From contig CM119372.1 of assembly GCA_051294905.1 (NCBI GenBank), positions 1,178,001 to 1,242,000 on the forward strand: DNA of 64,000 bases, in the 5' to 3' direction. Every line of letters begins with the position of its first letter. Within the stretch, counting starts at the first letter, position 1. The notes under the pieces were generated by a model, which was given only the letters and a program-made list of their open reading frames with translations, made no database searches and had not been told where the DNA came from. Source of the DNA: Botryllus schlosseri (Eukaryota). Both the position numbers and the translations under genes were made by a program. Shown here piece after piece: positions 7,793-62,662 of this stretch.

Positions 7793-7875
7793 GTGACTAT
7801 GGTGATATTTATCGCACTACCCTTGGGCAGGAATAGTCGACTGGAAAATTTCTGTTTTCCAAGTTGAATTATAAC

Positions 7876-38888: not shown

Positions 38889-41437
38889 GTGACACCGAGA
38901 TATTTTGCTGAGTCACATATGGAGATTTGTTTATGATTGATGTTCACAGTGAAACTATGATTGACATTATTTAAAAGGAGCATCTCGGTCTTATCTGCAT
39001 TCAAGCTTAGTTTGTTTGCTTGGAGCCATCTCGACACTTTTGGGAGTTCCCTATTCACGGATGCATGCAAATCATTGCCAGTGTTGGAGGTTATGAAGAG
39101 GTGAGTATCATCAGCAAATAGGGTTGTGCGGTATAAAGATGCATTAACAATGTCGTTAATATAAATGAGGAAAAAAGTCGGTCCAAGGACTGAGCCTTGT
39201 GGGACTCCACAAGTTATATCTCTGGTATAGTCGATCTTAATGTCCCCAGTTTAACAAATTGTTTGCGATTTGCCAGGTAGCTTTCAAGTAGAGTTGCTGC
39301 AATACCCCTGATTCCATAGTGTTCTAGCTTGTATCTTAAGATTCTGTGGTTAACTGTGTCGAAAGCTTTGCGGAGGTCGATAAAAATGCTGCAGCCACTT
39401 TTTTTTGCTTGATGGTTTTGTAATAGTCACTGGCATTACTCTGGCAGTTTTCAGTGCATCTGGGAAAATGCCCAGACGTATCGACATCACATATAACATC
39501 ACCAATAATATTAAAGACTAGCTTCAGAAAGTGCGTTGGGATGAGATCGGGTCCTACTGCTTTGCTACTTTTCATTTCAGATAGTATGATGGCAACTTCT
39601 CCTTCACTTGTCGGCTCAAGAAAAATGGATTTCTGAAGGCCAGGACTCAAGTACGAGAGAAAGTCATCGGAAGAGTTTGGTATTGAAGCTGCAAGATCCG
39701 GACCAATGTTGCAAAAATACTGATTTAACTTTTCTGCTACTGCAAGCTGGTCTTTGATCATGCTGCCATTCTCGAGTAGCTCGATGTCAGCAGCACTCTT
39801 GGGAGCATTACCTTTAGTTAGGTTGATAATTTCTCCAATGGTTTTCCATGTGTTCTTGGGATCCTTGGAGCACTCTTCGAATCTTTTTTGGAAGTATGCC
39901 TTTTTGGCATTTTCTTTCATATGCGTCACTTGGTTTGCATATTTTTTGTACACTTTTTTGCCTTCGCTTGTGCCTTGCAGATAGTAGTGCTTATGCATCC
40001 AATCCCTTGTTTTGATCGCAACTAGTATGTCATGACCAATCCAGGGTTTCGATTTCAAGCGCCTTATGGAAATGAGCCAAAAGGTAGTTATCCACAAAAG
40101 CGAAAACTCCATTACGGAACCGTTAAATGCGCTTTACATGGAGAATATAGCTCATTATTTACGCAAAATATAATTCAAGCATGCAGCTATGGTCGCACTG
40201 CTGTGTCACCTCCGACTCAAAAGGTCCCAGACCCGAATCGCGATTCGATAATAATAAACCAAATTCCAACGTCCGCGTTTACAGTTGAATATCTGTATTC
40301 CTTAAAACTCATGTACAACATGCACAATCATGCACATATGCAAGACTGAATCAAAGGGAGCATAGAAATATGACAACTTATATCGTCGTTAGCGCCTCTG
40401 TTCGAGTGTTCATAATTGACCGGCCAATCATCGTATTTTGCCAGCTATTCCATTCTTCGCGAATAAAGGTGTTGCTAATACTTGCTATAATAAAACCCCT
40501 ATGATCCGTGATACAATTTATTATAAAGGGAAAAGTAAGGGCATGAGGTAACATTTTGGAAGCAGCTGACGGGTCCGGTCCACTAGCTATTTGAAGGTTC
40601 GAATCCGGCCCGCGACGCAATTTGAGTTTGTCACCCCTGCGTTAGAGTGTGATCAGATTATAGTAGACCTCCAAGGTCATATCGATGATTGCTATCCGAT
40701 ACCTATGTGTAATTGTGTATGCGTATATTCCGTATCCTCATTGCGAAATGCTGAAAGCATGTTCATCACATAGAGGCGTTACATTGGGCTCTTGCGTGTA
40801 GGACAAGGAAGCTAAATATGCGTCGGGCGACAGCCTTCGAGTCCGTTGCGTCATTGGCTATAATCAGCGATTGACCATAGCAACCTTTTGTATAGGACTT
40901 TGGTATATCTTACACGATTGTAACACATCGCCCAAGCTGCGGCTCCCTATTACATCTGGAATTTGGCATTTTGTTTCAAACTTGATGGTCTGCTTCCGTT
41001 ACAGTAATTCTGCTGATATGCGCATGCGCATAACCAAGATAAGCTTGTCGTATAATGGCTATGTGTGATTCTTCTCATTGTTTCTATTGTATTTCGAGGA
41101 TATACGGCGTCAAATATCTCTTCCTTGAGACAACAGTGCCCGGGCTTATATTTAAAATATCTCTTCCTTCAGACAAATTAGACGGGCTCCGATTCATAAG
41201 ATGCGATATATTTAATAAATCAGTTTCACGTTCGTGTAATCGTATTATTCGTATTCTCGTATTTTAAAAGGTTCATAGCTAACCAATACGGCGTATTACT
41301 ACTGCTGTTAGAATGAAGAACGCTGTGAAGTGCGTAATGATGTTGATTGTGATGGCTGGCTCAGCTAATCACATATCAGCATGTCATTCGTGGCGGCACC
41401 ATTGGAGGTAAAGGAAGAGTCGGTTACATATATACAG

Positions 41438-42099
41438 TAGGGCTCTTCAAAAATGACTTTTTTTCTCAAATCGTACTGGCTACTTGATAGAATTGTTAGG
41501 TTACCTAATTTAAGCCTACACACAAAATTTGGTTGAATTCCAGCCAGTAACCGCTTTGCTACAGGAGAGGATAGTTTATATTTATTAAATGAAAATAAAT
41601 AATAAAAATTTGAAAATTTTCTGTTCACCCCATGAAAGTGTCAGGCTGTCTATAGAAACGATCCTCGCCAAATTTGGTTCAATTCCAACCAGTGGAAGCG
41701 GAGTTATTGCCGTCGAAAAATTTGGATTTGAATAAAATAGTATTTACGGTGACCGATTGTTTGTTTATTTATTATAGTTGTGCTCACCGTAAATACTATT
41801 TTATTCAAATCCAAATTTTTCGACGGCAATAACTCCGCTTCCACTGGTTGGAATTGAACCAAATTTGGTGAGCATCGTTTCTATAGACAGCCTGACACTT
41901 TCATGGGGTGAACAGAAAATTTTCAAATTTTTCATAATTTATTTTTATATGATAAATAGAAACTTTCTTCTCCTGTAGTAAAGCGGTTACTGGCTGGAAT
42001 TGAACCAAATTTTGTGTGTAGGCTTAAATTAGGTAACCTAACAATTTTATCAAGTAGCCGGTAAGATTTGAGAAAAAAAGTCATTTTTGAAGAGCCCTA
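41438..42099. mobile_element. Palindromic hAT-type MITE
   Basis: TAGGGCTCTTCAAAA termini, TSD ATATACAG. Confidence 0.92.
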
Positions 42100-42965
42100 A
42101 TATACAGCCCCCGAAACTCAATTTGGCAGCGCCAAGTTCAACATTCACCATATATAGCCGGGATATCTAGAACTAGATATCCGTGATATATGATCCCCGC
42201 TCCCCGGGCTAGGCTCCGGATTGACCATTGACGTTGATATAGTTCATACGGTATAGTTCTTAGCATATCCCCGAATGAAAAATGTTAGAACTAATTGTAC
42301 TTTTAACATTTAATGCGGTTATTATTTGCAGAACTCATCACTACTACTACCACCACGGAGACTCTCAGCAACAGGTACAGAAAGTTTTCGATACGTTGAA
42401 ATTAGTTAATCGTGAGATTTTGGACGCCCTGTTGCTCAGTCAGTAGTTCTCAACTTGTGTACGTAAGTCATCATTTCATGTGATATGCAGTAAATTCATT
42501 TCCTTTTTGAGTAAAATTTCTGTTTTCCCAAACCATTAACTTGATTTTTTCTAATGTAGAAAATGTCTTCATCGACAACATAGTTAAATATAGTATATTT
42601 TGCTCCCCGCTTAGATCAGCATGTGGAGAAGAAACAATTTAATTTCTTTAATTAGAGGAAAAGCGCTTATACTCTTGAATTCTGGAAATGAGATATAAAA
42701 TTTTAGCATATTTGTCTGACAGGCGGTGAGAACCACCGCTCTATATAACGCACGAGTCTTTCTTGCCCATTTTAGATTTCGGAGCATGAAGATGAGATGG
42801 CTTTGACCGATATTGCCGATATGCTTTCGCCACGCTTGAAGGAGGAAATCGCGTCACAATGGGAAAACTTGAACGATGCAGTTTTTCGCGACGTCGGCTC
42901 AGAAAGCAGCGACTCAATACTCGAAAACAGAGGTTATATTTACCCATATATATAAATATCTAGAT

Positions 42966-43276
42966 CAGTGGTTCCCAACCTGGGGGGCGTGAAAGCATCT
43001 GAAGGGGGGCGCGAAGAGGTGGTCAACTGAAAAAAATTTTCTCGCTCTGCGCGATTTATCTCCAATACACACGTGTTTCTCTGTATATAGACCGAATTTG
43101 ATATTTTTAATTCTCTCATCAACAGTCATAACCTTCCATGTCATCAAACAATCTGTTATGGTTGCTAGCATCCCGGTTAGATTTTGTGATATGCCGATAA
43201 GGGGGGGGGGGGGGGGGCGCGAAATTTTTCACTATCATAAAGGGAGGCGTGTCTAAAAAAAGGTTAAGAACCACTG
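42966..43276. mobile_element. hAT (Charlie-like) MITE
   Basis: CAGTGGTTC termini, TSD ATCTAGAT. Confidence 0.85.
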
Positions 43277-43965
43277 ATCTAGATAGATAGTGATCTATAA
43301 TTGGCCTCAGAATGACTTGTGTAGTGTTTTGACTCTTATAGGTGTTTTGAAGTGATGAGATTCTTAATAAACTCAGAGTCATGACAGAAGCTTTACATAT
43401 GCCAATATAGTTATCGCCTAATATAGTTTATATGGTTTCAGATGCAAGGGAGAATGTCGACGAATACAATCGCGACCGTTAGGATCAAGTGCAAGCTTCG
43501 GTCTTCACAGTTGTCCTACTTTTTTGGAACTGTCGTGTAATAATAAACGAGAATGAAGCATACTATTTCGTAGGTATTTCCGGCGCATTCATCAGACTGA
43601 CAGAAGTTTATTTCCAAAAATTGAGAGAACCTATTACAGTATTTGAAGAGTCTGTTTGAGGTAGGCCTACCGAATTTCAGTACACAATTAAATTAAATAT
43701 CATATTCGTATTGAAATAAACCCGAATATTCCTTACATACACTCGTCATGGGCAATTGTCAGTAACTAGAAGGGAATTGAAAAGAACCTTGAATATCAGC
43801 AATCGTTTCACAAAATATGACGTCACCGGCGAGAAAGTTTGAGTAATCTAGCACGGCTTAAGTTCAACTTATTATACACGGACTCCTTTTGTTGGCTGGT
43901 GTATTTTTGATGAAAGTAGACTCAAAGGCACGTTAAGTGAAATGTTGATCAGCTACACGACGCGA

Positions 43966-44290
43966 TCATCGTTTATAATCAATTTCTAGATAGCCGCTGT
44001 CGTCATTCTGTTGTGTACCGAGCTGCGAACGTCCCTGATCAGTCTCGCATCGCTCATAGTACGAATTGTCGTAGTCATTTTCGCAACCAACTTGCACGGG
44101 AGATATCTTGGTTTCTTTCGAGACGTTGCTCGCTAGCTCGGTTGCTGAAATTCCTTTTTTCGATTTCGTAGAGTCGCCGTTAACATAAGCCTCGTATGTT
44201 GTTGAAGTCATAGAAACTTCAGCGTACGGTGAAATGGTGTTCCCATTCGTTTCGGGGTTGGCGCTGCGGCCACGGCGTTTCGTTCTATTT
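43966..44290 (-). CDS. Type-I membrane receptor-like gene, exon 7: cytoplasmic tail with ITIM-consensus motifs
   Basis: gtcag| phase 2; RNRTKRR...SPYAEV...SGYLEIDYKR*. Confidence 0.8.
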
Positions 44291-44335
44291 CTGACGCAAT
44301 TACAAGTTTTATTAGAACATTGTAATTTTCGAAAA

Positions 44336-44508
44336 TAGATTAGGACAGATAGATAGATGGATGGGGGGAGGGAGAGGGAGAGGGAGAGGGGGAGAGCGCC
44401 TAGCAGGTCAGCTGCGGATACCAGTTTTCGAGTCGGTCGGAGATCGAACCCACGAGACACGACCTACCGATCAAGAAGCCGGGAGCATCACCATTACACT
44501 ATCTCGCT
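44336..44508 (-). mobile_element. tRNA-derived SINE fragment
   Basis: Head shared with 14156-14369 (TAGTGTAATGG...GGTTCGATCT), ends in simple repeats. Confidence 0.65.
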
Positions 44509-44594
44509 CTGGATGTATGTATGATTGTATGTATGGATGGATGGATATAAAATACACAATATATGCGTTTGTAACAAGAATCTCGACTTTTTAC

Positions 44595-44754
44595 CTGATG
44601 TGGCAGAACCCACATCCCACACAGACCAGAAGAATAAAGCACCCAACTGCAGCCAATGGTATCGCAATCTTGATTGTCAAGTCTGAACTGATCATCGGCA
44701 ACGTCGTCTTGATTTCCTCGGTGGTTCCAGGTACGGTCGGCTGTGGCTTTGATT
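44595..44754 (-). CDS. Receptor-like gene, exon 6: Thr/Pro stalk plus transmembrane helix
   Basis: ctcag|...|gtaaaa, phase 1-2; IAIPLAAVGCFILLVCVGCGFC. Confidence 0.82.
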
Positions 44755-45215
44755 CTGAGTAGAGACATGAATTACATTACCGGCATATTGCACTAAATTA
44801 GGCTATAAAACTACAATTCTGTCTATTTGTCCAAATCTGGAAACGGCTAACCAGACTTGGAAAAATAGATATAATTGTAATTGTATAATTAGACTGATTA
44901 TAGCAAAATGCCGGTAATCTGATTATAATCTAATTGCGAAACGTTTCTATGCTCTGATTTTAATTCTAATCTAATGTCTGGTTTTCCTGAAAATGCAACA
45001 AGAAAACTATGTAGAGCGAAACGAGCCAAGCTCGGTGTGCAGATATTTGTCATTCTCATGTTTACGAGAATAAACTCTGATTTGCTACGAGCTGAACTCG
45101 ATTTTGTTGTGTTTATTTCTAATCAGGAATTCAATTCAATTTGCAAGCTTTTGCGAATTCTAATTTAATATCCATCAATCGATTTCATCACGAGAACAAT
45201 AAATACGGCACTTAC

Positions 45216-45389
45216 CGCGAGGGCATTTGTTGTTCGGAATGCAGGCCCCGTTGTGTCTGACGTAACCGCCCTTGCAAACGCAACCAGCAGGCGCGCAACG
45301 TCTGCGGCAGCTAACTGATCGCTGGGCGCAAGTGTCAGGGCATAACGAAGGACATGTCGCAAACTCTTCCGTTTCAGAGCTACATGGTT
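45216..45389 (-). CDS. Receptor-like gene, exon 5: TIL (trypsin inhibitor-like Cys-rich) domain
   Basis: cacag|...|gtaagt, phase 1-1. CSSETEEFATCPSLCPDTC...CRRRCAPAGCVCKGGYVRHNGACIPNNKCP has 10 Cys in TIL spacing. Confidence 0.85.
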
Positions 45390-45670
45390 CTGTGAATAAT
45401 ATTCTCTAGCGTTAGAAGCAGGCTGGGCAATAATGAGCAGGCTACCTTAAGTGATTCGAGTCTGGACCGAGTATTAGGTTGTTATAGTATATTCGAGTAT
45501 CACATATTACGACGTCGCAACAGGATGAACGATACGGGAAGTTCAAATATGTACCATTTATGCAACCACAAAGAATATAATGCCAGTTGTACATCACATT
45601 AAAGATATACAATTTGGTATTTTTTCGAACATACCTATTTCAATTGAAAAGTATATTCATATTGAAATGA

Positions 45671-45704
45671 ACCCGAATATTTTCGGCTGACACTCGTCAG
45701 GGGT
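45671..45704 (-). ncRNA. Minimal type I hammerhead ribozyme motif
   Basis: Reverse complement reads ACCC-CUGACGA-G(UGUCAGC)C-GAAA-AUAU-UC-GGGU. Confidence 0.7.
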
Positions 45705-45949
45705 AATCGTCAGCAACTATAGTAGAGAATTGGAAAGAACATTGTATATCAACAATCGTATCACAAAATATGACGTCACCAGCATGAAATTTCGTGAATG
45801 AGAGAGCATTCAATGTACTATTTTTAGGTACATTGAAAAAAAAATAGTACATTGAGTGCTCTCTAATTTCATGCTGGTGACGTCATATTTTGTGATCCCA
45901 TTGTTGATATACAATGTTCTTTCCAATTCTCTACTAGTTGCTGACGATT

Positions 45950-45983
45950 ACCCCTGACGAGTGTCAGCCGAAAATATTCGGGT
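45950..45983 (+). ncRNA. Minimal type I hammerhead ribozyme motif
   Basis: Stem I ACCC/GGGU, core CUGACGA, 1-bp stem II, GAAA, palindromic AAUAUU stem III, UUC triplet with predicted cleavage after 45979. Confidence 0.72.
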
Positions 45984-46374
45984 TCATTTCAATATGAATA
46001 TACTTTTCAATTGTATATTGAAGTTCTGTACCTCGAAGAAGCTCTTCAAATACCTATTTCATTGCACTTTGTGACAATGACGTGCGGGTGGATCACGACT
46101 TCACAGATACGTAATTTTTTATTAGTGCGTGGTTTTGTATTACATATGTTTCGTATGCAATCAGCCTTCCACAGTAGGAAATAGTATCGAGACAATAATT
46201 TCCGTTGATAAATTGTCTCTTAGTGACAAGCAGTGTGTAATTTTAGCATTCGAAAATATCGTATTTTTTCTACTCTGCTCGACTCCTAATATACACGATT
46301 ATTATAATAATAATATTCAATATTTATGTGAAAACAATTAATGCTATGGTAGTTACAGCAACTCAATTCCTCAC

Positions 46375-46578
46375 CTGCACAGTTAATGACCTTGTAATGG
46401 ATGCTAAACGTGATATATGACCATTGCACGAAGGTGACGTTCATTGGTTCTCTGTTCGAAATGGCTACATTTGCACAGGACTTATTTGCACTCGAGAACT
46501 GACATTTCGCGGCGGAAGTGGTACGCGCGTACGTGAAGCAGCCCTCCTGAATCCCATGAACTTTGCATATAGACTTCC
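46375..46578 (-). CDS. Receptor-like gene, exon 4: C-terminal part of a CUB-like domain
   Basis: aacag|...|gtgagg, phase 1-1, open frame KSICKVHG...NVTFVQWSYITFSIHYKVINCA. Confidence 0.72.
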
Positions 46579-46598
46579 CTGTTAAAACATATACCTAT

Positions 46599-49466
46599 TT
46601 GAATAGCTTCTTGAACGAGGTGCAGAATTTCAATATAACGCGATTGAGTAGTATATTCATATTGAAATGAACGCAAATAGTTCCTGTTGACACTAGTCAG
46701 GGGTAATCGTCAGCAACTCAGAATCGGAAAGAAAGAACATTCTAGATCTAGAATTTAGACCAGTGGTTCCAAACGTGGGCGATATCGCCCACCAGGAGGC
46801 GATTTTAAGAAAGAAGGAGGCGATGGTGGCGAAAATGTTAGAACGTCCTGTGAGATATAGGACATGGTACCGATGATCAAGAATTGCAAAATGATATCTG
46901 GCCCTCAAATCTCAAGTCGATGAGAGCAGATCTTTTGTTGGCTCAAGACTTTGATACAAGCTCTACCTATCGGAGATATATACATGGATGGATGGATATC
47001 CACCAATTGAAAAAATAGTTCTGAACGTTCGAAATTTGTTGCTGGAACGTATCGTCGGTCTCCACCAGGGGGGTCGGAAGGAACACGACCTGTGAACCGA
47101 TACGAGACATACACTCAAAAAGTTAAATGTTCCAACTTTTCTTGCTGTGTTAAATAATCTAAGCTACAGCAAGCAAAAAAGAATAAATAGAATAAATAAT
47201 ACGTCAAATGTTGCCATGAAATCACGTTTTGATTTAAGCACAAACTTACAAATTTGTTTGTACACTGTTCACACCACCTCTCTGTGGCGATCACGATCGC
47301 CCTCGTTTATGCTAAGACCTACCGGTCCCCCGTCATCTCCCAATCCATACCAATTTACATGTTGTGTTTGTTGGTGAGATGAATAAAAGCATACTGACTA
47401 CCGCCTTATTCCGCGCTTGTTCGTCCGCTGCGATTCTACCGACCGTGCGCATAATATCGTCAAAACCCAACAAAATCGCGCATCTTTGGCCGGAACTAGG
47501 CGCTTGAAGACGGGCGGCGTTTGCCGGCTCATGACTAAATGTGAGCATTTACGAATTTCTTTCAATCATACCGTAAAAGAAACGCGATTTTCAGGCAATG
47601 TCTGTATCGTATTCGTACATCATGATATATCATTGGCCTCACATGTACAAATTATGTATTTGAATTGAAAAAAGTCCACTTAAGGATGATATTGAATAAT
47701 AAATATGTGCCGTTATATAGCCTGGTAGAAGCACTACAGTTCACATAAAAATTATGGTAGGTTTGTTCGTGTTGAATGTTACAAAGAAAAATGAATGCGT
47801 CGATCGAAATTTATTTTATACCACCCGAAACAGAAAACATCTGTCAGAGACCCCAAAACTCATGCAGGTTCAAGTTTTTTGCATGCGAGGAAAGATTCTG
47901 CCAGCATGCAATTATAGACAAATTCACGGAGTGTAATCATGGGATTATCATAGAAAAATTTTCAAGTATTTTCGGTCCCAGTGTCAAATAGGTACCACAT
48001 CTCCCCTATTTACTACCCCGGCCAAAAATTCACGTGGAGACTGCTTATTAGGGATGGTGTGAACTTGAGGTTCACGTTCGCGTTCTGTGTGTGAACCTCG
48101 GAAATTTAGAGGTTCGCGTTCACAACAGAACCTTGGTTGGTTCTGCACTGTGAACCTTTTTCATATATTACAATTTTCACATCAATATGATATTTTTGGT
48201 TCGAATTTATTGCATTTCAACTGCGGGCCACTCTATGCATGACGCTGGCAGCATAAAAAATCAACGCAAAACGAGCATGCACCTTGACAATCTCAAAGAT
48301 TTTATTTGCTTTGTTACAAAGTTTGCACGAAATATCCACCTTCCCGTTTGTGAATATTTAGTGACTCTCTGCTGTGAGCTTGACCCGCAATCACACAACA
48401 TCACGAGCAACATGCAGTACCTGTAGTCAGCGAATGATGCTTATTCAACCAATCAATGAGATTGATATCGCTTTTTGATGTAATAAATCTAGCAGTCAAT
48501 CTTGACTTCATATGTTTATAGTATCATTAAAACAAAATCCGTGCGATTGAGGTGTTGGCTACAGCTGTATCACTTGTGGGGTAGCCGAATATCGGTACCA
48601 AATATGGAAACATGTTTTACGCTCTGCCCAATATCAATGTAGCAATAGTCAGACGCCGCATACATTGTCCGGTCTGGCGAAGGCCGTTGAGGCGTAAGCT
48701 TATATTCACTGGCAACTCCTCGTCGAAATTGTCGGCAAAGCGACGGATGATATTGATTTTATGGGAGTATCATATCATTTGACTGCCTCAGTTGATACAT
48801 TTAGCGAGGTTTCAAACGCCAATATGTATTTAAGCATTGTGTCATTATGTGGCCCGAGTCGTCGTTAGGTATCGTGTACACTGTACATGTACACATTAGT
48901 ATAGGCTATCCATTAATTGAAATGTAAGGTTGAAATTAGCAATATGACGTCACGTGACGTCATGAGGTTCACGTTCGTGTTCACACAGAACCTTTCAAAA
49001 AGGTTCACGTTCACACGAACCTGAACCTTTCGGAGGTTCACACCATCCCTACTGCTTATTCTGCATATGACGCGAAAGCTGACTAAAAAAGGTCAACTCA
49101 ACCGAAAGTAGACGCGGAAATCGGATTTCCGAGCACCTACTCGGATAAATGACCATTTTTTAGTTAGTCAATTCACCAACGATCAGAGTTAATTGAATAA
49201 ATTTCCCGTAATATATATGTCCTCTTTTTCGAATCTGTAAATATTGGGGGGGGGGGGGGGGCGGACATTTGTGACGAGCTTGGTAAGGGGGGGATGAGTC
49301 GAAAAAGGTTGGGGACCACTGATCTAGGACCAACAATCTCCATATTTTGGGATCCGATTGTTGATATATAATGTTCTTGCCAAATTTCTTCTATAGTTAC
49401 CGACGATTACCCAGACCAGTGTCAGTCGAAAATATTCGGGTTCATTTCATTATGAATATACTATTC
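46599..49466 (-). mobile_element. Older copy of the hammerhead-bearing palindromic family, expanded by nested insertions
   Basis: Same asymmetric ends, 13-bp TSD AACATATACCTAT. Contains a CAGTGGT-ended element (about 46761-49321) that itself contains 48049-49051. Confidence 0.7.
48049..49051. mobile_element. hAT-type non-autonomous element (TAGGGATGGTGTGAAC termini)
   Basis: TIR, TSD CTGCTTAT; second copy at 60790-61748. Confidence 0.9.
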
Positions 49467-50034
49467 AACATATACCTATATGAAAAAGGTCGTTGGAAAT
49501 TATTACAGAGAAATTGATATAGTCTTCATTTGTCAACCGCACAGAAATTAGAAAAGCCAGATATAAACGGGAGGCGCGATGTAACAGTTGTCTAATCCGA
49601 TCATTTTAGAGCGAAATGCCGCTAATCTAATTTTAATCTACATTGTGAAATGTTTCCAATCAATCAATTATGTGACAATTAATCAGGTTCTAATATTCTA
49701 AGCCAATTTCTGGTTTCCCGGAAAATGCTAGAGGAGAACTGTGTTGTGCGAAAAGAGCCAAAGCTCGCTGCACAGACATTGGCTATTGTCACGCTTTTTA
49801 TAATGAACTGTGATTTGACATGGGGTGAACTATGATTTAATTTCCAAGTTTTCGCGAAATCTCTAATTCTAATTGTATAATCTACTTATAATGTGTATCA
49901 ATCATTGTAATTCGAATTGGGAAAAGCTGAACAAGTGAACATCTTGACGTTGTCAAACTTAGAATCATTGCCCAGGCTGGTCCAGCAGCTTCGCTAATAT
50001 AGCAAGGCGTATGACAAACCGGTAGTCCACCCAC

Positions 50035-50175
50035 CTTTAGGTAACATCAGAAAGTTGTCTAATCTCGGAAATATCCAGCGGTGATCGCAGCTGAAGCGGA
50101 ATTCTGCGATTTGTCCTTCCGTTAGAAAGTCTTGTGGGAAGACGTAAGTCTTTCTCGAACAGAGATCGTCTGTAG
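50035..50175 (-). CDS. Receptor-like gene, exon 3: CUB-like middle
   Basis: ttttag|...|gtgggt, phase 1-1; TDDLCSRKTYVFPQDFLTEGQIAEFRFSCDHRWIFPRLDNFLMLPK. Confidence 0.68.
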
Positions 50176-50695
50176 CTAAAATAGCAGCGCACGTTGACTA
50201 TCAATTTCACTGCAACTGAAGACTTGGACAACTGTGTACATAATCATAATTGTTTAATTACCTGGAGCGAAATGCCGGTAATCTAATTTTAATCAAATTG
50301 TTGGTTTTCCTGAAAATTTTACATGAGAACTGCTGATGTATCGTGCGAAACGTGCCAAGCTCGGTGTACAGACATTTGCCATTCTCGTACTTATGAGAAT
50401 GGACTCTGGTTTGATACAAACGGAACTTGATTCAACTTCAAGTTTTCGCGAATTTAGTAATTCTAATGAAGATCTAACTTGAAATACACTGTGCATATAG
50501 CTATAATACTAATTCGAATTCAAATTTGGAACAAACTGTGTAGCTATACTTTATATTCTAATCTAATTTGGAAATACTGAATATATTCTAGTTCCAACTA
50601 AGAACGTGTTGAATTTTCGGGCGCTTGTCGATCGGATCGTATTGTACTCAAAAATATCGCATGTATCGCATATATCGATATTCGGCTGACTTTAC

Positions 50696-50755
50696 CTGTT
50701 ATTCGTCCTTTCGACGCTCTGACGGTGTCAGTACACGTCCCGGGTTGGGTATTGC
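50696..50755 (-). CDS. Receptor-like gene, exon 2: CUB-like start
   Basis: ttttaacag|...|gtaaag, phase 1-1. NTQPGTCTDTVRASKGRIT resembles the CUB start CGGxLxxxxGxIxSP. Confidence 0.65.
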
Positions 50756-50827
50756 CTGTTAAAAGAGTGTTTTGCATTTGCACACCTTATGTCATCAAGA
50801 AGGTCGAGTCTAAACGCAGGTTTTAAG

Positions 50828-51339
50828 TAGGGCTGGGCACATTGATCGAGTACTCGAATCTGAACCGAGTATTAATTTTAATGATTCGAGTCGAGCAGTA
50901 AAAGACGATTTTTTCGAGTACTGAAATTATACGCTTCTCGCAACTGAAACCTAATTTACTAACGAGAATTATAGTTTCGATACTATTTTGCTCTGAGGAA
51001 GCCTTGAAACCTTGATTGGCCGTGTCGCAGCATACGAGGCAAAGTAGAAAGCTACTAACGTTACTGGAAACAACACATTTCCGAAATCATGATCATCCCA
51101 TAACATTGCCAAGAAGCGCAATGAAGTCGTATGGTAAAATAATACCAATGAATCTTTAATGTGACGGATAACGGGCATTTTGCTCTTTGTGGTGGCATAA
51201 AAGGTACATATTTGAACTTTGATATAGTACTTTCTGTTGTGACGGCATAAGGAGTGATACTCGAATACTTGACATGACTCGAAGCATAATATGTGATTCA
51301 GAATCGAATCACTCAGGTACTCGATTTTGCCCAGCCTTA
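50828..51339 (-). mobile_element. hAT-type MITE (TAGGGCTGGGCA family)
   Basis: TIRs, TSD GTTTTAAG/GTTATAAG; an older copy follows immediately. Confidence 0.85.
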
Positions 51340-52182
51340 GTTATAAGCAGGGCTGGGGTACGATAATAATTAGAGTATAGTCGAATCTGAATCGAGTATT
51401 AATTCTAAAGACTAGAGCCGAGTATTGAGAGAGATTTCTTCGAGTACTATGATCATTGATCATACGCTCCATTGTCACCAAGAGTTAATTTATCAACGGG
51501 GATTATAGTTTCGATACTATTATCTTGAAACCACCATTCGTCGTATGACAGCATACGAAACATGTAGTACAAAGTTACGCACGTTAGTGAACATGACACA
51601 TCTGCGAAATCGTGAGCAGCCTACAATATTGTCACAGAGTGCTATGTAATAGGTAGGCCTACCGTCGACAAAAAATGTTAAGTTAGAATGTCATATCACT
51701 ATTCTTTGTGATCGCAGGAAAGGTATGGTTAAGGGGTGGGCAGCCTTTGATTGCGGCTCTTTAATAATCGCACATGCGTTTCGCCATTTTGCTAGAGAGG
51801 TTTAACCTGATTATAAATTGATGTATTTTATCGCGTATTGTTTTCGTCTTGTTTCTTTCCTTATGGTATACGCAAGACTTGTAGGGGTAGGTGGCACTAC
51901 AGGGTTAAAAATTTGCAATTGAACTCTCGAATGAATTCACATAAACGTCTCGCCCGCAACAAGGGACGCCTGGTCAATAGGGTCGTTCAAAATTAACTTT
52001 TTTTTCTGGATTCCAGCCATTCAGGCATTAAATTGTCAGGTTACCCTAAAAATCGCTGCGCACCAAATTTGGTTCAATTCTAACAAGTATAAGGCTCCGC
52101 AGATCCAACTTTTGGTGTTGCATGGTATTCCTGATGGCTTTTTAGTATGGTTGATAATTGTTAAGGTTAAAAGCCTCATACT

Positions 52183-52528
52183 TAGGGTTACCATACGTCC
52201 TCTTTTAAGAGGATTTGTCCCCTTTTTTGACTGTTTTGAAAGTGTCCTCAGAGGACGCCCAAATGTCTTCTTTTTGGGGATTTTGTCATCTTTTTTGAGA
52301 ATTTTGGTCAAATTTACGGCCAAATTCGACTGAAATGCCGTAAATGAGCACCGAAGTAACGCTCTGGCGGGCATTTCGGGAGCTGATCCGGAAAGTTGAC
52401 CCTTTTTTAGTCAACCGACCACGATGTGGGAAAAATTGACCATTTTTCAGGATTTTCCTCCGGTTTTGCAAGTCTGAAAATTTTGAAAAAGTGTCCCTAT
52501 TTCAGATTTTCAAAATATGGTAACCCTA
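52183..52528. mobile_element. hAT-type MITE (TAGGGTTACCAT termini)
   Basis: TSD CTCATACT. Confidence 0.85.
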
Positions 52529-52645
52529 CTCATACTAAGTCAGTTATACGAGATCATAAGTTCGTCTTGATGTTATTCTTAAATGCGAGGACCCATGATG
52601 GCATACGTAGGTGGAGCCAAACATGATCACTTTATCAGTATACAT

Positions 52646-53028
52646 TAGTGCGGAGCATGGACCAGAGCCGGATTGGATATCCGGCCGGATTTTTACAATT
52701 TTGGCCGGACCGGATCGGAGCCGGATCAGTACATTTTCTGTTACGGCCGGAGCCGGATCACTACTTTTTTGATCCGGCCAGAATCTTTATGGATAAGCAT
52801 GACTTTTATACTATATAACTACCAACCAACCACACGTAAGTAACCTCCAAACCAGTGTGAACATAAACGAGGCATATTTATCAATTCACGGAACCTCCGT
52901 ACCGAGTAGGGCCGGATTTCTGGCCGGACTTTTTCATTTTTGGCCGGACCGGATTGGAGCCGGATCAGTACTTTTCCTGATACGGCCGGAGCCGGACCAG
53001 AGAGAATTTGTCGATTCGCTCCGCACTA
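52646..53028. mobile_element. hAT-type MITE (TAGTGCGGAGC termini, CCGGA repeats)
   Basis: TSD GTATACAT. Confidence 0.85.
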
Positions 53029-53316
53029 GTATACATGCATACCCATTTGTGGTGCGTCAGTGACGTGAGGTCAGGGGAGGCAAGTGAGGCAGTGCTCGCC
53101 TGTCTACTAGATTTTAAACATTTTTACTACCAAAATCACGCCACTTGCCTATTTATTGTTAGAAAATAGAGTTCGAAACAGAGGCTAAGGCATTGTGATA
53201 GCGCAATTCATCGTAAATATCATAGAATGTATAATAACTGATATTATTCGAATGTAATTGTCGCTCTGATTCCGATTCGGCTTCTCAATTCTCAAAGTGT
53301 TCGGCGGTATAAAATT

Positions 53317-56300
53317 GAGACGGACTTTCAGCATTCCCGTGGCCACTTACTGGCCACGGATAATTTCGTGGCCGGCCACAGATATTCCGTGGCCGGCCAT
53401 GAAAAGTGTTATTCTGTGGCCGGCCATGGTAATTTTCATGGCCGGCCATGAAATTTCAGTATGGCCGGCCACGAAATTTCCATGGCCGGCCATGTCAAAC
53501 TCATTGTCATGGCCGGCCATGACTAAATTTCATGGCCGGCCATAGCCAAATTTCATGGCCGGCTGCAATATATCAAGTTATATAGTATCGATGATAAGTA
53601 CTGTATGTGGCCCAATCGTGGACAAATGCATGATCAATTATGTTCTATTATGGGCGTACAGTAAATAGAACTAGGTGAGAGCGAGAGTTTAGCTCAGTTT
53701 ATATGCATTTTCACCTGAAATACCAGATGAATAGCGATACAATGAAACGATAGGAAGAAGATGAAGCGATATGTAATAGTCTCTATATATCAATTAAAAA
53801 CACAAAAAATGATGTAAAGAATGCATTAAAAAGGGGGATATCCTCTAAATGAAACAGGAAATAATGGTATAGAAAGCTAGAAGTGATGAAGACATTATCA
53901 AAACTGGTAACTGGTAAGTGTTGATTTATATCTTTTTTATAGAAATATACCTAAATATTCGGCTGACACTCGTCACAGCTAATCGTATGCAACTGCATAG
54001 AATTGGAAAAAACAATGTTTACCAGATATCTGTCAGAAAATCTCTATAAGTTCCCCAAAAGCTGTGAGATTCACATGACATTCTGTGGCCGGCCACAGAA
54101 CAGATCAGAGCTCGCTGTGGCCGGTGCTTCCCCCGTTCTGATATTGATTTTCAACCGTAAGATGTGCAATGTGCATTGTGCAGTTGCAATCGATTGTATA
54201 GTTAGTTTTATTTTGTAAATATGCAAACCGACGATTAAACAATATGATGATGATAATGGCCTTCATTTTTCAACCATGTTTATCGTTTATGATGAGTCTG
54301 CGATGCGAATAAGTAATACATATATATTTGATCATGCCTCAGTTTAATGATGTTTGTAGGGGCAGTTTAAAATCTTTCGTGGATTGCCCTGATGAATTTA
54401 TGAATAATACAATACTGTACTGGGAATTTGTCTTAATTCACTGCCAATTTTCGATTTACGCTTAAGTAGACTCGACTATTACCTCCTTGAATGCATAATC
54501 TGTTCCATCGAGATACTGGATCGGTCAATATGCGGTCATTTTACCTGTTTTCTTGTTTCAATACTAAATACCGTAATGAAAGTACCCGAACGAAACAATT
54601 AGGGAATCAAAGAACCAAGAATATGTGGAAAATACTGTTTCAAGTTCCAGAAAAGCTGTGAAATCCACATAACATTCTGTGGCCGGCCACAGAGCAGCTC
54701 GCTGCTCGCTGTGGCCGGTGCTTCCCCCGATCTGATATGTCTTTCCAACGGTATAGGACATGTAGGCTAGTTGCTAGTTTGTTATCTTTCGTATAGCTGA
54801 ATAGCTGTGAATTTGATAATGCCAGGCTGATACAATCCTTCCTCTCTGTATCAGGTCTATGATAATTCCGCGATATGCGGTTATATACATATTTGATTAT
54901 CGTACTGCTATACAATACATACGACGTTCGAGATCCTCAACATCAATGGAGCTTGCACTCATTTGCACGATGAGAATTGTGTCGATGCATCTAAGAATAT
55001 TTCTATGCTGTAGCAGCACGTGAACTTGACACACTGCAGATGTGCTGTGGATGTAGAATAAAGACAACGATGTAGCCTAACCTGCCGGTAATATTGGTAA
55101 AATGTGGGGCTTTGTTCCCAGAAATTTGATTTTGGTCACGTTTTCGATCCTATATAATTTGTATGTATAATGTATATTGTATATCCACCTAGGTGCCGTT
55201 CTTCCAGGCTGAAGCAAATACGAATGAGATGCATGTCGCAGTCACTAACGATGCCGTGTATGCCAGAGGATACTTGATTACTTGGGTGCAAGGATCGTTT
55301 TGTATCGCATGTCGTTGTTAGATCAAGCTGCTAACCGATGTGGTGGGCTTAGGACGTAAATGTGCCTGCTATATAATTAAATTATTGTTATAATAATAGA
55401 TAACTTCAGATACTTTGCGTCATCTAAGGCAGCAGCATCGATCGATGCGACATCAAATGCAGCGCCATCGATCGACGAAAAAATGCTCATGTCAAGCCTG
55501 CGAATTGACCAATAGGCATGATATATTTGTGGTTGATGCAGGGAACAATGTGCAATTCAGCGAAAAATCTTGATGACACAGACAAGTCCCAATCATTCAT
55601 TATAATTCGACATTTGAATGCAGTACAAATACTTATCGCCGTGCAAAGTGCATCCGATCTCTCGTGCCCCTGGGTGTTTTCTGTGAAAAGCATGTACCGG
55701 ACACATTGCATTCATGCAACTACTTGCATGAATTGTGAATGATTGTAATCATATCTTCAATTGCTACAGATTTTGTGAAATTGGTAACGGAATAAACAAA
55801 CTTTTTGTAGCAAAATATGACGGCTTCTTTATGTAAAAAACGAAGGAGGGGCAGGGAGTCAGTTTATCTACGTTTCCATCGCTAATGGGCTTGGGCGATG
55901 GAGATGCGAAGAAACTGCAAGGCTATCGAGTCTGCACCACGGTTTTATCTTTCACGCAATCCCATTGCGTTGATCGCCTGGCGTGGAAGCTGTGTGGACA
56001 CCAGTTTTAATGTAAAGACGTTTGTCTGACCGAGCAATAAGATGTACGCAGTACGCTCATACATTACTCTATCAAATATATATCTAGATTCTAGAAAGTT
56101 CAAGGAACGTATGTTTCGGTGTTAGTTTACAATGCACCGTCCCAGAGTACTTTTTCAATAGTCAGTGGGAATTAAATTCATTTCTACAGCGAATAGAGAA
56201 GGTAACACGTGTAAAGCCGTGCAAATTTTGAACCCATCCCTAAACTAATCAATAAAGTGGTAATGTAACTTATGTACGTGCGATAAAATAGTGGAAGTCG

Positions 56301-56590
56301 TCTATACAAACCTTGCCACCAGCAAGTTCGTATTGTAAATGACGAAGATCTAGTTGACTATTGTCAAATTGGATGCAAAGGGCGGATTTTGATCCAACTA
56401 GATGTGCCAAAATCACGAACTGGCCATGAACTCGTGGCCGGCCACGATGAATTCTCATGGCCGGCCATGAAATTCACTGTGGCCGGCCACGAGACAACGC
56501 ATTTTCATGGCCGGCCACGAGAAATTCGTGGCCGGCCACAAAAAAATCTGTGGCCAGTAAGTGGCCACGGGAAAGCTGAGACCCCTACTG
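53317..56590. mobile_element. 3.3-kb TIR element with subterminal TGGCCGGCCA arrays
   Basis: Inverted ends TCAGC(A/T)TTCCCGTGGCCACTTACTGGCCAC, 8-bp flanking repeat ATAAAATT; the outermost left bases are degenerate. Confidence 0.72.
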
Positions 56591-57253
56591 ATAAAATTTG
56601 CGCAACACGCCTACATTTTAACAGCGACTACAAAGCTACGTTATCAATCAAGAAAGTGGATAGCTATGGCGTAGTTTGTAATTTGAATTTGTGATTGTGA
56701 ATGTCACTTCCACGGCATTTCATTTCTCGCCGGAGATCAGAAATACAATGTATATTTGAAAACTGCATTGTGATACAGGCGCCGCCATGTCTCCTTAGTC
56801 TCTTTGATCAATGAATGCATCGTGCAATTGAAGATTTCGTATCGGGTACATCGAATTTGCGAGTGATATTGGTTGCCGGCGCGACAGCAACTTAAATTTG
56901 AGGATTTTGAAAAGAGGTTCCGAACCCCTAACGCTGAATACGTCACTGTATTAACCTCTCAAATACATTTTTGTGCTGCCACAAGAGTAATTATACTGCT
57001 CGTGCTGAAGATTTAATAACAAGTTGCCGTAATATTGGTAAATTAGGCACAGAAATAAAAATTTTGCAAAGAGCCATATCTTATGCCCAAAAGAGCCATA
57101 GGTTCCCGACCACTGCTCTAATCCGTTATAGTTATTCAGCTTAACTCAAGTATGATCACAATGCCATTGCTGTTATTTGATGTGCCGCTTCCCTCCGTAC
57201 TATGCCGATGTGCATCCTGAGCTGTAGGCTAGACTCGGTTATCGGTTACTCAC

Positions 57254-57311
57254 TTTCAGATGACTGCAATAAAATGTAAAGTAGATGCGCAAATGTCAGG
57301 CTTGCTCTCAT
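57254..57311 (-). CDS. Receptor-like gene, exon 1: signal peptide
   Basis: ATG at 57311, MRASLTFAHLLYILLQSSE then A|gtgagt; phase 1 matches exon 2. Confidence 0.6.
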
Positions 57312-57823
57312 TGTAGTGCTTTTCCCACAGTCAGATACGCATTTCGTTGTGAGGCTTTCTGTTGAAAAGTTACGAAACTCGACTGCAGTGCCTAACAGAT
57401 GAATGACGATCGAGCCAGGTACAGGGAGACACTCTTTATCTGACGAACTGAACAATGAACATTTTAGGCTAATATTCCAGCACCGAGCATGAACATTACA
57501 GAAACTGGCTAGAGTCACGAAACTATCGAATGAACATGATGATCCTTGTATGGAAAGTCAAATATGTTTTTATGAACACAAACAAGAGTTAGTCATAACC
57601 CGAACAAGCCTCGCATCGCCACGGAAATAGGCCTGTACTACACGACGAAAGTCCACGTATATCACGTCGTCAGAATATACACCTATATTAATGGCTTGCT
57701 GAGCGATTCAAGTAAGTTTACCAAAAGTCCTCCTTTTTCGGGTTTTTGAAAATGTCCTCCGAGGACGCTTAAATGTCCTCCATTTCGGCAATTCGTCCTC
57801 CTTTACAGCTTCTACAGCTAGGG

Positions 57824-59338
57824 CAATGGTTGTCAACCTTTTTAGACTTGCGGCACCCTCTCCAAATGGAAAATAGTTCGCGGCACACTAGCACATTTTT
57901 TTTTGGGGGGGGGGGGGGGGGGGGGTTATTTATGGTGTTGGTCGACTACTATGGTCATTTACACCAGGCCGATATTCTTCTTATTTTCCGGAACTGCCGA
58001 CTTATAGCACGGTCTACCTAGGCTTTTGTCAGACCCCGCTGACGCGGATGAGGTGGCGAGGAGGAGCTTAGGTAAACCTCCAACACTTAGGTATCGGAAT
58101 TCTGAAGTCGACCTCGGTCGGACTCGAAACCGCACCCATTGGTGTTGCAGCCGCGGATTATACCACTGTGCTATCTCGCCACACTAGCACATAGTGGTTT
58201 TGAAATAGCTCGGCTGTTTGTCAGGCAAGTGCCTATACTTTTTGAAATGTTCCTTTTCAGGCAGCATAGCTTCATTTGACATTTTGCATGATAGAAAAGG
58301 CTATCTGGTACAGGTTGCAATTCACCATCACACCAGATGATGCCCTTATTTAGATAACTGTTGCAATGTATGCGTGCTCTACAGCTTCCTTTTCTAATGT
58401 ACCTCCACTTCCCAAATCTAGTTTCTTTACTGCAATGATAATCACCACTTGTATTCCTTTCTTTATAAATAAAATATCCATTTTAATATTTCTAAAAGTA
58501 AATATTTGTAAGCAAAGCGTCGCACATATTGATTACTAAGCCCTGATAAATAGTCGCCGCAATCCTCGGGCCAGAATATCGTTCCTTCGTGATTACGACA
58601 AGCAGGGTGTATTCAGACGAAAAAAATGGGTCATTTTGAATTAGTAACGATTTACGACGTCACAGAAATTTCGAACTGCGCTTGGATACTATTTCATAAG
58701 ATTTGTTTGACAAACTCTGAACTCTTCTGCATTATCGATGTAACTAGCTACGGACGCCAAACGCATTTCCACGCAGATCGTGTAGCACACGTGAGGGTGG
58801 CCATAGACCACGATAGCTCTAGTGTCAGTCACCCGCAGTACAATTATAGCTCCAAGCTTCCAGCAAACCTGGATAATAACTTATGCGGTCAGGAAATTTG
58901 TTAACTGATACAATTTGACTAGCTACACTTCTCAGTCTCAAATTCGTCGCCTGTATAACATAACGTTGCGCTACAGGCCTATATTTTAATGGCAGTGCTG
59001 GTACGCTGCATAACAAGGACTTGAAAATTGCATTGTCACACAGGCACCGCCAAGTCTGCTCTTCTCCGAGATAAATCAATAACGTATTGTGGAAAATTTA
59101 ATTCAGCCGTTAAAGCACGCGATATGTCGGATAAAGCGAATTAGCAGGGATATTGATTGCCTGCATGACAGCAATTTTGATTTGACAAATATACAAACTG
59201 CAAATCGAGCCCATCAATTTAGATTAATGATTGTAATTTTGCGTATAATTTCCAAATTTCGAAGAAATCTCTCGCGGCACACTTGCGAGACGCAAATGGC
59301 ACACTTTTGTGCCGCGGCACACCGGTTGAGAACCACTG
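57824..59338. mobile_element. hAT (Charlie-like) non-autonomous element
   Basis: CAATGGTTGTCAACC / GGTTGAGAACCACTG termini, TSD AGCTAGGG. Confidence 0.8.
57897..58180 (-). mobile_element. Full-length tRNA-derived SINE
   Basis: A-box TAGCACAGTGG, B-box GTTTCGAGTCC, C-run plus A tail, 12-bp TSD ACACTAGCACAT (57885-57896 and 58181-58192). Confidence 0.8.
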
Positions 59339-59581
59339 AGCTAGGGTAATGGACAGATTCGAGTGAAAATGGGGCATAAATGACGCTAAATAGCAATTAC
59401 GGACGTTCCAGCGGGCCATTCGAGACTTGAGCAAGAAAGCGGACCTTTCTAATTTTAGCCAACTCCACAAATTTTCCAGCAAAAATTGCAAGATCGGCAG
59501 TTTTCAGTTTTGATCAACTAACTTTTCTGATTTGGTAAAAGCGTCCTCCTTTCCCGATTCCAAAATATGGTAACCCTAGAC

Positions 59582-61748: not shown

Positions 61749-62662
61749 GTGTTTACTCGAACAGTCCGTTTCAGAGGGTGTCTGATCTTAACACTACTAC
61801 TTGTCGTTTCGGCATCTCCCTATCATCCATTGTATTGCAGTCTTGTGATGCATTGAAGTGATGAAATTTTATGAATAAACTTGAACTTGAATTTGCTAAT
61901 AAGGTTGGACTGATTTTTGCAAAAACATATGGTTATAATGTGTCATGTGCGTCAAATCATAGTGTCCTATATATGGCGTGGACACAAGCAAGTGTCCCGC
62001 GGCTCATTGAAATTGGTCTACATTACACTTTCCATTTAGTCAAAGGCAATTTGATGGTACATTGTGACCGGCTTGCCGAACATTAAGTTGGATAAATCAT
62101 TTGGCGAGCCATGAAAAATCATCTCGCGTGCCACAAATGGCGGGTTAGGGTTGCCGACCCCTAATCGCTGGTTGATTGATCGTCCGGCTAGTTAGAAAAC
62201 TCAATGTTGCATAACGATTAACCATGAACATCTACGGAGAACGCTGGTGACGATTTTCGATTAAATGTAGACTACCATACGACCGCTAACGACGTGACCA
62301 CATATTCATAAATCAGACTTTGATGCACAGACAGAGCTTTTAATGTACCGATGCTCCGAATCAGTTTCCCGTAGTCCATGGCACACGCATCTACTCTCAG
62401 CGCCTTCCAATTTGTAGCTAGCTCCCCTTCTAGGTTGCAAACACCCCTATAGATTTTATTACTCGTCGACAATTGGTACAAGCTTAAAATTGTATCATAT
62501 GGATTGTGTATCGAAGAATCGCATCATATAAATATGTTTCTGAGGTTTTATATTCCATCATCTATTTGGCTGATGTAGTTTAGCAGTTATACGTATTTGA
62601 ACAGCTTCTTTGAGGTACAGAACTTCAATATACAATTGAATAGTATATTCATATTAAAATGA

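Follow-up and report, generated by a model that had tools for sequence, protein, structure and literature searches.

Zonadhesin is a membrane protein bearing a trypsin inhibitor-like cysteine (TIL) domain, in mucins and vWF this module plays a structural role, CDCP1 contains three CUB-like domains but lacks TIL, and we know of no multi-tyrosine scaffold in HAI-1 or HAI-2, whose inhibitor module has the Kunitz fold. Botryllus FcoR proteins (PMC12582321) are type I, with a single helix and a fast-evolving ectodomain; their tails mix ITIM, hemITAM and 'core' forms of the YxxI/L/V motif, and in some of them the first domain is split across three exons. They are built as Ig-Sushi-Ig-Ig, measure 520-610 aa, and are clustered and paired with Fester-family genes (PMC12582321). 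CDCP1 is single-pass; its CUB-type ectodomain is a substrate of trypsin, matriptase and plasmin, and an ITAM-like tyrosine pair docks SHP2 and Src kinases (PMC4395315). A CxxC motif adjoining the helix and Grb2-type YxN sites, placed in a long multi-tyrosine tail, are hallmarks of LAT, NTAL, PAG and LIME, the last of which combines YxN, Src-type and ITIM sites; the YxN site is defined in the same reports (PMC2194117, PMC2196071). HAI-1 and HAI-2 hold a canonical serine-protease inhibitor module on one helix (PMC12940448), and TIL inhibitors of the Ascaris type (PF01826) belong to a family whose criterion is ten conserved cysteines (PMC10004685).

The locus analysed here, in a 64-kb window (the whole stretch of DNA examined), shares features with each of these systems. 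It lies on the minus strand at 43966..57311, as do all features given below. The first-pass annotation had proposed seven GT-AG exons with compatible phases and an open frame of 373 aa, and all coordinates (7/7 exons), phases and the length were reproduced: every intron is GT...AG, the phases are 1, 1, 1, 1, 1 and 2, and the spliced coding sequence of 1122 nt encodes 373 aa and a TGA with no internal stop. Exon 1 (57254..57311) holds the start codon and a predicted signal peptide (residues 1-19); three ATG-to-GT candidates of phase 1 in the 13 kb on the 5' side of exon 2 have a good donor, and of these it alone is hydrophobic. Exons 2 (50696..50755), 3 (50035..50175) and 4 (46375..46578) encode an unnamed domain of 130 aa, and exon 5 (45216..45389), of symmetric phase 1-1, encodes a TIL domain. 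Exon 6 (44595..44754) supplies a stalk in which 12 of 25 residues are Ser, Thr or Pro, the transmembrane helix and the juxtamembrane C257-x-x-C260-x-x-C263, and the coding part of exon 7 (43966..44290) adds a basic stop-transfer stretch directly after the helix and a cytoplasmic tail of 108 aa; the ectodomain measures about 220 aa. The signal peptide and transmembrane segment proposed earlier were both found, the former as a modest hydrophobic stretch in exon 1 (best 9-mer KD 2.2) and the latter as one strong helix (best 19-mer 242-260, mean KD 2.67). The start codon is preceded, at a distance of 31 nt, by a short upstream ATG-stop, and an ING protein is encoded next to the gene.

The TIL domain, likewise part of the initial description, is firmly identified. 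PF01826 was matched at 40.8 bits against a cut-off of 24.5 (E 2.5e-10, profile positions 2-55 of 55), and exon 5 contains ten cysteines (C157, 167, 171, 175, 182, 186, 191, 193, 204 and 210), whose pairing is predicted from the family. Related PDB entries are 1ata, 1ccv and 8j3q, the ESM Atlas matches of this exon were TIL clusters only (best 0.84), and a single-sequence structure model gave a pLDDT of 48.9. The C5-C6 reactive-site loop, C182-R-R-R-C186 (45295..45309), has five residues, as in Ascaris-type inhibitors, and aligns ungapped to C-T-R-E-C of the Ascaris trypsin inhibitor (1ata), with Arg184 over its Arg, which we take to be P1. The loop is predicted to carry a basic P1 (Arg184), as do TIL-type trypsin inhibitors, in which Arg or Lys at this position confers activity towards trypsin (PMC10004685); an Arg at P1' would be odd for a stable inhibitor. 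The three solved relatives are small (56-62 aa), whereas here the domain forms part of a membrane-anchored protein whose tail is of signalling type.

The N-terminal domain had been called CUB-like, a label marked as tentative from the start, and this survives in weakened form. Exon 2 carries its first cysteine and a CUB-like first strand pair, exon 3 its mid-part, and exon 4 its end, with five cysteines and N-glycosylation sequons at 118 and 133. Pfam returned nothing for exon 3 alone or exon 4 alone, and neither exon had a match in a PDB sequence search. When scored against a CUB HMM built from 185 domains, mostly bacterial plus 18 from three other proteins (two lamprey), the spliced model reached -1.1 bits, and a glocal test gave z values of -0.6 to 0.4 in 6/6 settings. 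A test of the order of eight beta-strand blocks, devised after these two profile tests had failed, yielded a score of 28.2 (median of the training CUBs, 99); 9 of 500 shuffles scored at least as high, as did 17 of 623 natural non-CUB windows (p ~0.02-0.03). Folded alone, exon 4 gave an AlphaFold pLDDT of 38.5, too low to be informative. The region is possibly a disulphide-rich beta domain of divergent CUB type.

The gene appears lineage-specific and fast-evolving, with no relative found in the searches made; the earlier description of a fast-evolving, single-pass receptor-like gene is supported. A word-index search of exon 4 and the TIL exon against longer proteins, weak evidence in itself, produced no candidates, and the ESM Atlas gave no usable match for exon 4. 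HMMER placed exon 4 against 1.84 billion representatives and returned one match, a DUF11 repeat protein (E 7.9e-4), which was rejected as chance. A metagenome scan gave two loci, of which L001 was rejected as a short chance frame in GC-rich, bacterial-looking DNA, while the match of L002 extends over 16 residues. A search for paralogue clusters had been suggested in the first-pass annotation, and tblastn showed no paralogue within the 64-kb window. That annotation had also not recognised the architecture, and a combination of TIL, CUB and transmembrane segment was indeed undescribed in the open papers searched, subscription papers lying mostly outside that scope, so that an earlier description may exist. 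In mostly open papers, nothing was found on a trypsin inhibitor-like cysteine domain together with an ITIM; the combination of trypsin inhibitor-like, ascidian and transmembrane led only to flatworm adhesion and venom topics, and that of a TIL receptor with a tyrosine cytoplasmic tail only to bovine mucins.

The tail contains eight tyrosines in 108 aa (7.4%, vs 2.3% of the ectodomain), and seven matches to an acidic-before-tyrosine pattern, a number reached by 2.4% of shuffles. SPYAEV and SGYLEI, the two motifs originally reported, are present together with further tyrosines. SPYAEV (residues 286-291, Tyr288; 44215..44232) may be read as a loose ITIM, an SHP/Csk-type site or a YxxPhi sorting motif, and Tyr298 follows it at ITAM-like spacing; YVN (Tyr301; 44179..44187) is a Grb2/GADS-type YxN site, YDN (Tyr339; 44065..44073) is a second one within an acidic tyrosine cluster, and DDSGYLEI (Tyr366, SGYLEI at 364-369; 43981..44004) is a loose ITIM that is also hemITAM-like and PLC-gamma-type. 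The loose ITIM consensus, V/I/S/L-x-Y-x-x-I/V/L (PMC12669754), was matched twice, and at least two matches arose in 1.4% of 100,000 tail shuffles, this being one of 12 patterns tried, uncorrected. Both motifs have Ser at -2 and therefore fit the loose consensus only, outside the I/L/V form; the canonical I/L/V-x-Y-x-x-I/L/V had 0 matches in the tail. The I/L/V form is the one used for Botryllus FcoR ITIMs, and under it Ser -2 motifs would be 'core-1', with function unassigned (PMC12582321). Strict hemITAM, ITAM and ITSM patterns all failed in the tail; the hemITAM pattern [ED][ED][ED]-x-Y-x-x-L is not matched by D-D-S-G-Y-L-E-I, which has two acids and a Ser, with G at -1 present. Activating hemITAMs are marked by Gly at -1 and upstream acids (PMC12669754), and FGFR YLDL is bound by PLC-gamma (PMC6747522). 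Among patterns picked after viewing the tail, the hemITAM-like one occurred in 0.08% of shuffles, the PLC-gamma-type one in 1.4% and both jointly in 0.02%; single motifs were unremarkable (two YxN 13%, two Yxx[ILV] 21%, Y[AST]x[VIL] 22%). The initial designation of the receptor as inhibitory is not supported, given the lack of a canonical ITIM in the tail, the activating-type G-1 and acids of the distal motif, and the Grb2- and PLC-gamma-type sites.

Compared with FcoR, the protein is likewise, by prediction, type I with one helix, a fast-evolving ectodomain, an N-terminal domain split over three exons and mixed tail motifs. FcoR or Fester identity was nevertheless rejected: the second domain is TIL, Ig and Sushi were undetected, and the length is 373 aa. 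YLEI, the TIL-loop motif and the start motif had 0 occurrences in the FcoR dataset and the YAEV core had two, and no likeness was seen by eye in parts 1 and 3 of its 8 parts. With the raft adaptors it shares C257xxC260xxC263, the eight tyrosines and YxN at 301 and 339; this is a likeness by features, as NTAL and LIME have an outer peptide of 6-9 residues whereas here there are a signal peptide and an ectodomain, and NTAL has five YxN sites vs two. A Cys next to the membrane helix is present as well in some of the FcoR sequences inspected, and is not adaptor-specific. The likeness to CDCP1, which is far larger, is again by features, with a putative CUB fold and similar spacing of Tyr288 and Tyr298.

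Our preferred reading, which we hold tentatively and with rather less than even confidence, is a predicted single-pass cell-surface receptor, likely of an ascidian, with a TIL domain that probably baits a trypsin-like protease and a tail that would form a mixed phosphotyrosine scaffold rather than a pure inhibitory switch. The exon structure, the TIL domain, a single membrane helix and the tail motifs are observed, as is RNA covering exons 4, 6 and 7, while the function is inferred. In a type I topology, the disulphide-rich beta domain and the TIL domain would be held out on an O-glycosylated stalk, and the canonical loop, with Arg at P1, would bind an Arg-cutting serine protease of the host (a wound, haemolymph or gamete cascade) or of a microbe. 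Protease binding or clipping may then cluster the receptor, which palmitoylation of CxxC would keep in ordered membrane while Src/Syk kinases phosphorylate the acidic-context tyrosines; the YxN sites could recruit Grb2/GADS, YLEI could bind PLC-gamma or Syk, and YAEV could bind SHP or Csk, so that the output would be activation with a built-in brake. Src, Syk, SHP-1, SHIP, Grb2, GADS and PLC-gamma are expressed in Botryllus vasculature (PMC12582321), and CDCP1 sets a precedent for a receptor of CUB type that serine proteases cleave and that binds Src kinases as well as SHP2 (PMC4395315). Of the immune, protease-sensing or allorecognition roles suggested earlier, protease sensing remains plausible from the TIL loop, and allorecognition finds no support, as neither a paralogue in the window nor Ig or Sushi was detected. 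If the preferred reading is true, the coupling of a canonical inhibitor loop to a phosphotyrosine tail would offer a mode of sensing extracellular proteolysis distinct from PARs and from cleaved receptors (CDCP1). Ascidians have been reported with GADS, Grb2, PLC-gamma, ITK and Syk but without LAT or SLP-76 (PMC12582321, PMC12065747), and the presence of CxxC, YVN/YDN and GYLEI in an orphan means that it could be an unrecognised LAT-slot protein. A receptor with a LAT-like scaffold in its own tail, fired when a trypsin-like protease bites the TIL loop, is a very unlikely reading; it would be a candidate answer to a question of chordate immune evolution, namely the scaffold for Grb2/GADS and PLC-gamma in LAT-less ascidians.

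The view first taken of this gene, a purely inhibitory immune receptor recruiting SHP/SHIP through two ITIMs, appears unlikely: SHP-1 and SHIP do exist in Botryllus, in the PNAS dataset the YAEV core occurs twice, each time at the end of an FcoR tail, and two loose ITIM matches are seen in 1.4% of shuffles, but that pattern is one of many tested, uncorrected, the canonical form has 0 matches, the distal site carries activating-type G-1 and acids, and the two sites stand 78 residues apart among six other tyrosines, two of them in YxN. Judged similarly unlikely is a membrane-anchored protease inhibitor resembling HAI-1/HAI-2, with TIL in place of Kunitz, which would capture and remove a surface protease, use YxxPhi for sorting or endocytosis and signal little. 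A stalk-borne canonical TIL domain whose P1 is Arg and the match of both tail motifs to YxxPhi agree with it, and HAI-1/2 are membrane-bound and regulate type II serine proteases (PMC12940448). A 108-aa tail with eight mostly acidic-context tyrosines and CxxC goes, however, beyond sorting needs. A receptor for adhesion or recognition between gametes, between cells or with matrix, whose N-terminal domain binds the ligand while TIL only acts structurally to space it, like the TIL modules of zonadhesin, vWF and mucins, seems a little more doubtful still. The distal domain is Cys-rich, without relatives and the most exposed part, and a TIL exon of phase 1-1 is typical of modules spread by exon shuffling; against this, the TIL is unaccompanied by vWD or another mucin-type module, and its loop retains the canonical length and a basic P1.

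Extremely improbable is that the gene model itself fuses pieces that do not belong together or is incorrect at its 5' end. RNA was compared in four runs from four studies, of which run X1 was taken as RNA by guess and X14 is of a type not on record. A 2,009-nt contig of X1 (depth 20.3) covers 43440-44290 and breaks off precisely at the acceptor of exon 7. At 44648 and 46474, variants with this same depth, each in one contig, lie 54 and 100 letters from the piece ends, which places these ends at the donors 44595 and 46375, and X14 has an identical piece end at 46375 (exon 4 donor). Judged indirectly, by depth and by where the pieces stop, the 2,009-nt contig seems to link exons 4, 6 and 7. For the junction support named earlier as a check, piece ends coincide with three predicted borders (exons 4, 6 and 7), contigs of two studies contributing; exons 1-3 and 5 were not individually seen among the RNA pieces shown, and none of the gene's junctions was among the 15 of 759 joint-table rows listed. 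These unseen exons, the long intron 1 (6.5 kb) and the modest signal peptide would suit a merged model, but the contig runs on for 905 letters past exon 7, a length that fits exons 1-6 (797 nt) plus a leader of ~108 nt, the CUB-like blocks run in order over exons 2-4, and exon 1 is the sole hydrophobic candidate. The 3' UTR (42650..43965) has ATTAAA at 42652 and 42643; its stretch 43439-42931 is apparently missing from the RNA contigs, whose end would fall at ~42680, and single-cell reads pile up near 42893 (159 reads, one orientation).

The seven minus-strand exons proposed for the candidate receptor gene (window 43966-57311) were all found in their places, with GT-AG borders at six of six introns and intron phases of 1, 1, 1, 1, 1 and 2, and their splicing gives the single open frame that had been claimed (1122 nt, 373 aa and a TGA stop). 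The claimed transmembrane segment is a single strong hydrophobic helix by hydropathy (best 19-mer at residues 242-260, mean 2.67), and because it is followed by a basic stretch, the product is predicted with high confidence to be a type I membrane protein. The claimed signal peptide held in part: of three phase-1 ATG-to-GT candidates that lie upstream of exon 2 and have a good donor, exon 1 alone is hydrophobic, but the strength of the peptide is modest. A three-codon upstream ORF (window 57331-57342, minus strand) begins 31 nt before the start codon, within the inferred leader.

The run search for the gene gave 18 holders across seven studies, none recorded as RNA, and six raw RNA runs bearing the same species label were added; four of these 24 runs were compared with window 42200-59500, most tables being swamped by repeats. 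In run X1, RNA by our guess, a 2,009-nt contig (depth 20.3) covers 43440-44290, ending at the exon-7 acceptor; what remains of it past exon 7, 905 letters, matches the joint length of exons 1-6 (797 nt) and a leader of ~108 nt. Single-contig variants of X1 at 44648 and 46474, equal in depth to this contig, lie 54 and 100 letters from piece ends that coincide with donors 44595 and 46375; a piece from X14, a run of unrecorded kind, likewise ends at 46375. These depths and piece ends argue strongly for co-splicing of exons 4, 6 and 7, and more weakly for the 5' end of the model, exons 1-3 and 5 being outside the displayed RNA rows. For the proposed RNA-seq check of junctions, piece ends were found at the borders of exons 4, 6 and 7; the joint rows listed (15 of 759) contain no junction of this gene. 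We hold the gene to be real with near certainty, and an erroneous model to be very improbable. Raw bulk RNA (X21) gave 5 and 4 reads at the two exon sites 44648 and 46474. Single-cell run X19 gave none there but 159 reads, sharing a single orientation, at position 42893 of the 3' UTR; read depth drops from there toward the coding sequence, the profile expected if the library captured the 3' ends of a minus-strand RNA. Because the strand label is ambiguous for second-mate-only reads, strand is not independently shown. Of the two coding variants seen, that in codon 248 is synonymous and the other is A122S. The X1 and X14 RNA contigs appear to omit 42931-43439 (509 nt of 3' UTR), which ends GA...CT, is no intron and holds an inverted-repeat element; it is likely an insertion allele of the assembled individual. 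X14 contig 10 (44489-44755) joins exon 6 to 106 nt of intron 6 at depth 6.65 versus 27 for exon 7; such read-through would meet a stop right after exon 6, giving a membrane form without the tail, or the contig may be pre-mRNA or DNA.

As claimed, the receptor is a TIL domain family member: exon 5 matches Pfam TIL (E 2.5e-10), carries all ten TIL cysteines and aligns with three PDB sequences (Ascaris trypsin inhibitor, bee chymotrypsin inhibitor and LL-TIL). Its Cys5-Cys6 loop reads C-R-R-R-C versus C-T-R-E-C in the Ascaris inhibitor (1ata), whose Arg we take to be P1, and this alignment places Arg184 at P1 of the predicted inhibitor loop. In silkworm TIL proteins, P1 Arg or Lys confers trypsin inhibition (PMC10004685). 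Whether the receptor's TIL binds a protease seems to us evenly balanced.

The N-terminal domain, which spans residues 25-154 over exons 2-4 and has eight cysteines, had been called CUB-like; its single-exon queries gave no match in Pfam, PDB, Atlas or protein collections. Against 185 CUB domains, mainly bacterial with 18 from two lamprey and one unnamed protein, the spliced model scored -1.1 bits by hmmsearch, and glocal alignment gave z of -0.6 to 0.4 in all six settings. In a test devised after these two, eight ungapped CUB strand blocks fell in CUB order over exons 2-4 with a score of 28.2, matched by 9/500 shuffles and 17/623 natural non-CUB windows and far below the median of 99 for true CUBs. 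Near the last strands the domain lacks the acidic Ser-Asp motif that the CUB consensus carries there, and relative to CUB it has a ~30-residue insertion with three cysteines. Overall, the domain is no more than a possible, very divergent CUB.

The tail holds eight tyrosines in 108 aa, and most of its single motifs are frequent by chance. In 100,000 shuffles (12 + 4 patterns, p-values uncorrected), two Yxx[ILV] occurred in 21%, two YxN in 13%, the loose ITAM-like pair Tyr288/Tyr298 in 2.5%, the acidic-before-Tyr count in 2.4%, Y[LIV][ED][LIV], the PLC-gamma-type consensus, in 1.4%, and the hemITAM-like DDxGYxxI, a pattern fitted post hoc, in 0.08%. The two ITIM-consensus motifs of the first-pass annotation meet the loose consensus (1.4% of shuffles), but strict ITIM, ITSM, ITAM and strict hemITAM have no match in the tail. 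SPYAEV and SGYLEI are 'core-1' motifs, not ITIMs, under the definitions for Botryllus Fester co-receptors (FcoR), which assign 'core-1' no known function (PMC12582321); the label 'inhibitory' is not borne out. A pure ITIM receptor, for which the loose matches speak and the strict count does not, is unlikely, and a purely inhibitory output is doubtful to the same degree. The activating Dectin-1 hemITAM is set apart from SHIP1-restrained DNGR-1 by a Tyr-adjacent Gly and upstream acids (PMC12669754), FGFR YLDL is a PLC-gamma binding site (PMC6747522), and Botryllus expresses Src, Syk, SHP-1, SHIP, Grb2, GADS, ITK and PLC-gamma, LAT and SLP-76 homologues not being found in ascidians (PMC12582321, PMC12065747). 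The tail is probably used for phosphotyrosine docking.

Our preferred mechanism, held tentatively, is that the TIL domain would act as protease bait outside and the tail as a mixed phosphotyrosine scaffold inside. An HAI-like tethered inhibitor, whose tail motifs would serve in sorting, is improbable; an adhesion receptor in which the TIL is structural is slightly more so. The bait-and-scaffold receptor may work like CDCP1, by analogy: serine proteases cleave that CUB receptor, and its ITAM-like pair of tyrosines was found to bind SHP2 whether or not cleavage had occurred (PMC4395315). The inner half of the present protein is constructed like the raft adaptors LAT, NTAL, PAG and LIME, whose hallmark is CxxC adjoining the helix plus YxN sites (PMC2194117, PMC2196071); identity as a raft adaptor was rejected because of the large ectodomain. 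Identity as an FcoR was also rejected, FcoR architecture being Ig-Sushi-Ig-Ig. FcoR were compared by eye in dataset parts 1 and 3 of 8, where some of them also show Cys adjoining the helix, and in the whole file for six motifs. The Tyr288-Tyr301 stretch (window 44170-44230, minus strand) resembles by eye the acidic, Tyr-containing stretch in the tail of FcoR8, a likeness that may be chance. The architecture had been called unrecognised, and the literature searched, of partial coverage, yielded neither a description of it nor any TIL-bearing signalling receptor; the collections searched yielded no orthologue.

The proposed search for paralogue clusters found no paralogue within the 64-kb window; the flanks examined are mainly inverted-repeat elements and LINE-like fragments. 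An intronless ING4/5-type gene (24255-24977, minus strand; ING domain E 4.9e-30 and a PHD finger) sits 19 kb downstream of the receptor gene, and its single exon suggests a retrocopy origin. Short Gly/Tyr/Arg-rich exon-like stretches on the plus strand (window about 1900-8600: near 1930, 3090-3320, 4420-4480, 7640-7820 and 8430-8580) probably form the low-complexity region of a gene for an RNA-binding protein. A 1.1-kb inverted duplication of 90% identity (4946-6046 and 6451-7539) likely represents DNA transposon arms. The 308-aa ORF at 29767-30693 (plus strand), with no Pfam match, begins within a repeat also present at 25484-25605 and 28664-28787 and is likely transposon-derived. Broken ORFs that are LINE reverse-transcriptase-like by eye lie at 38840-40133, 32082-32561, 17797-18126 and 20907-21200, and there are several palindromic elements, nearly perfect and 370-670 bp long, for example at 41438-42099, 21576-22201, 62629-63111 and 45641-46013.
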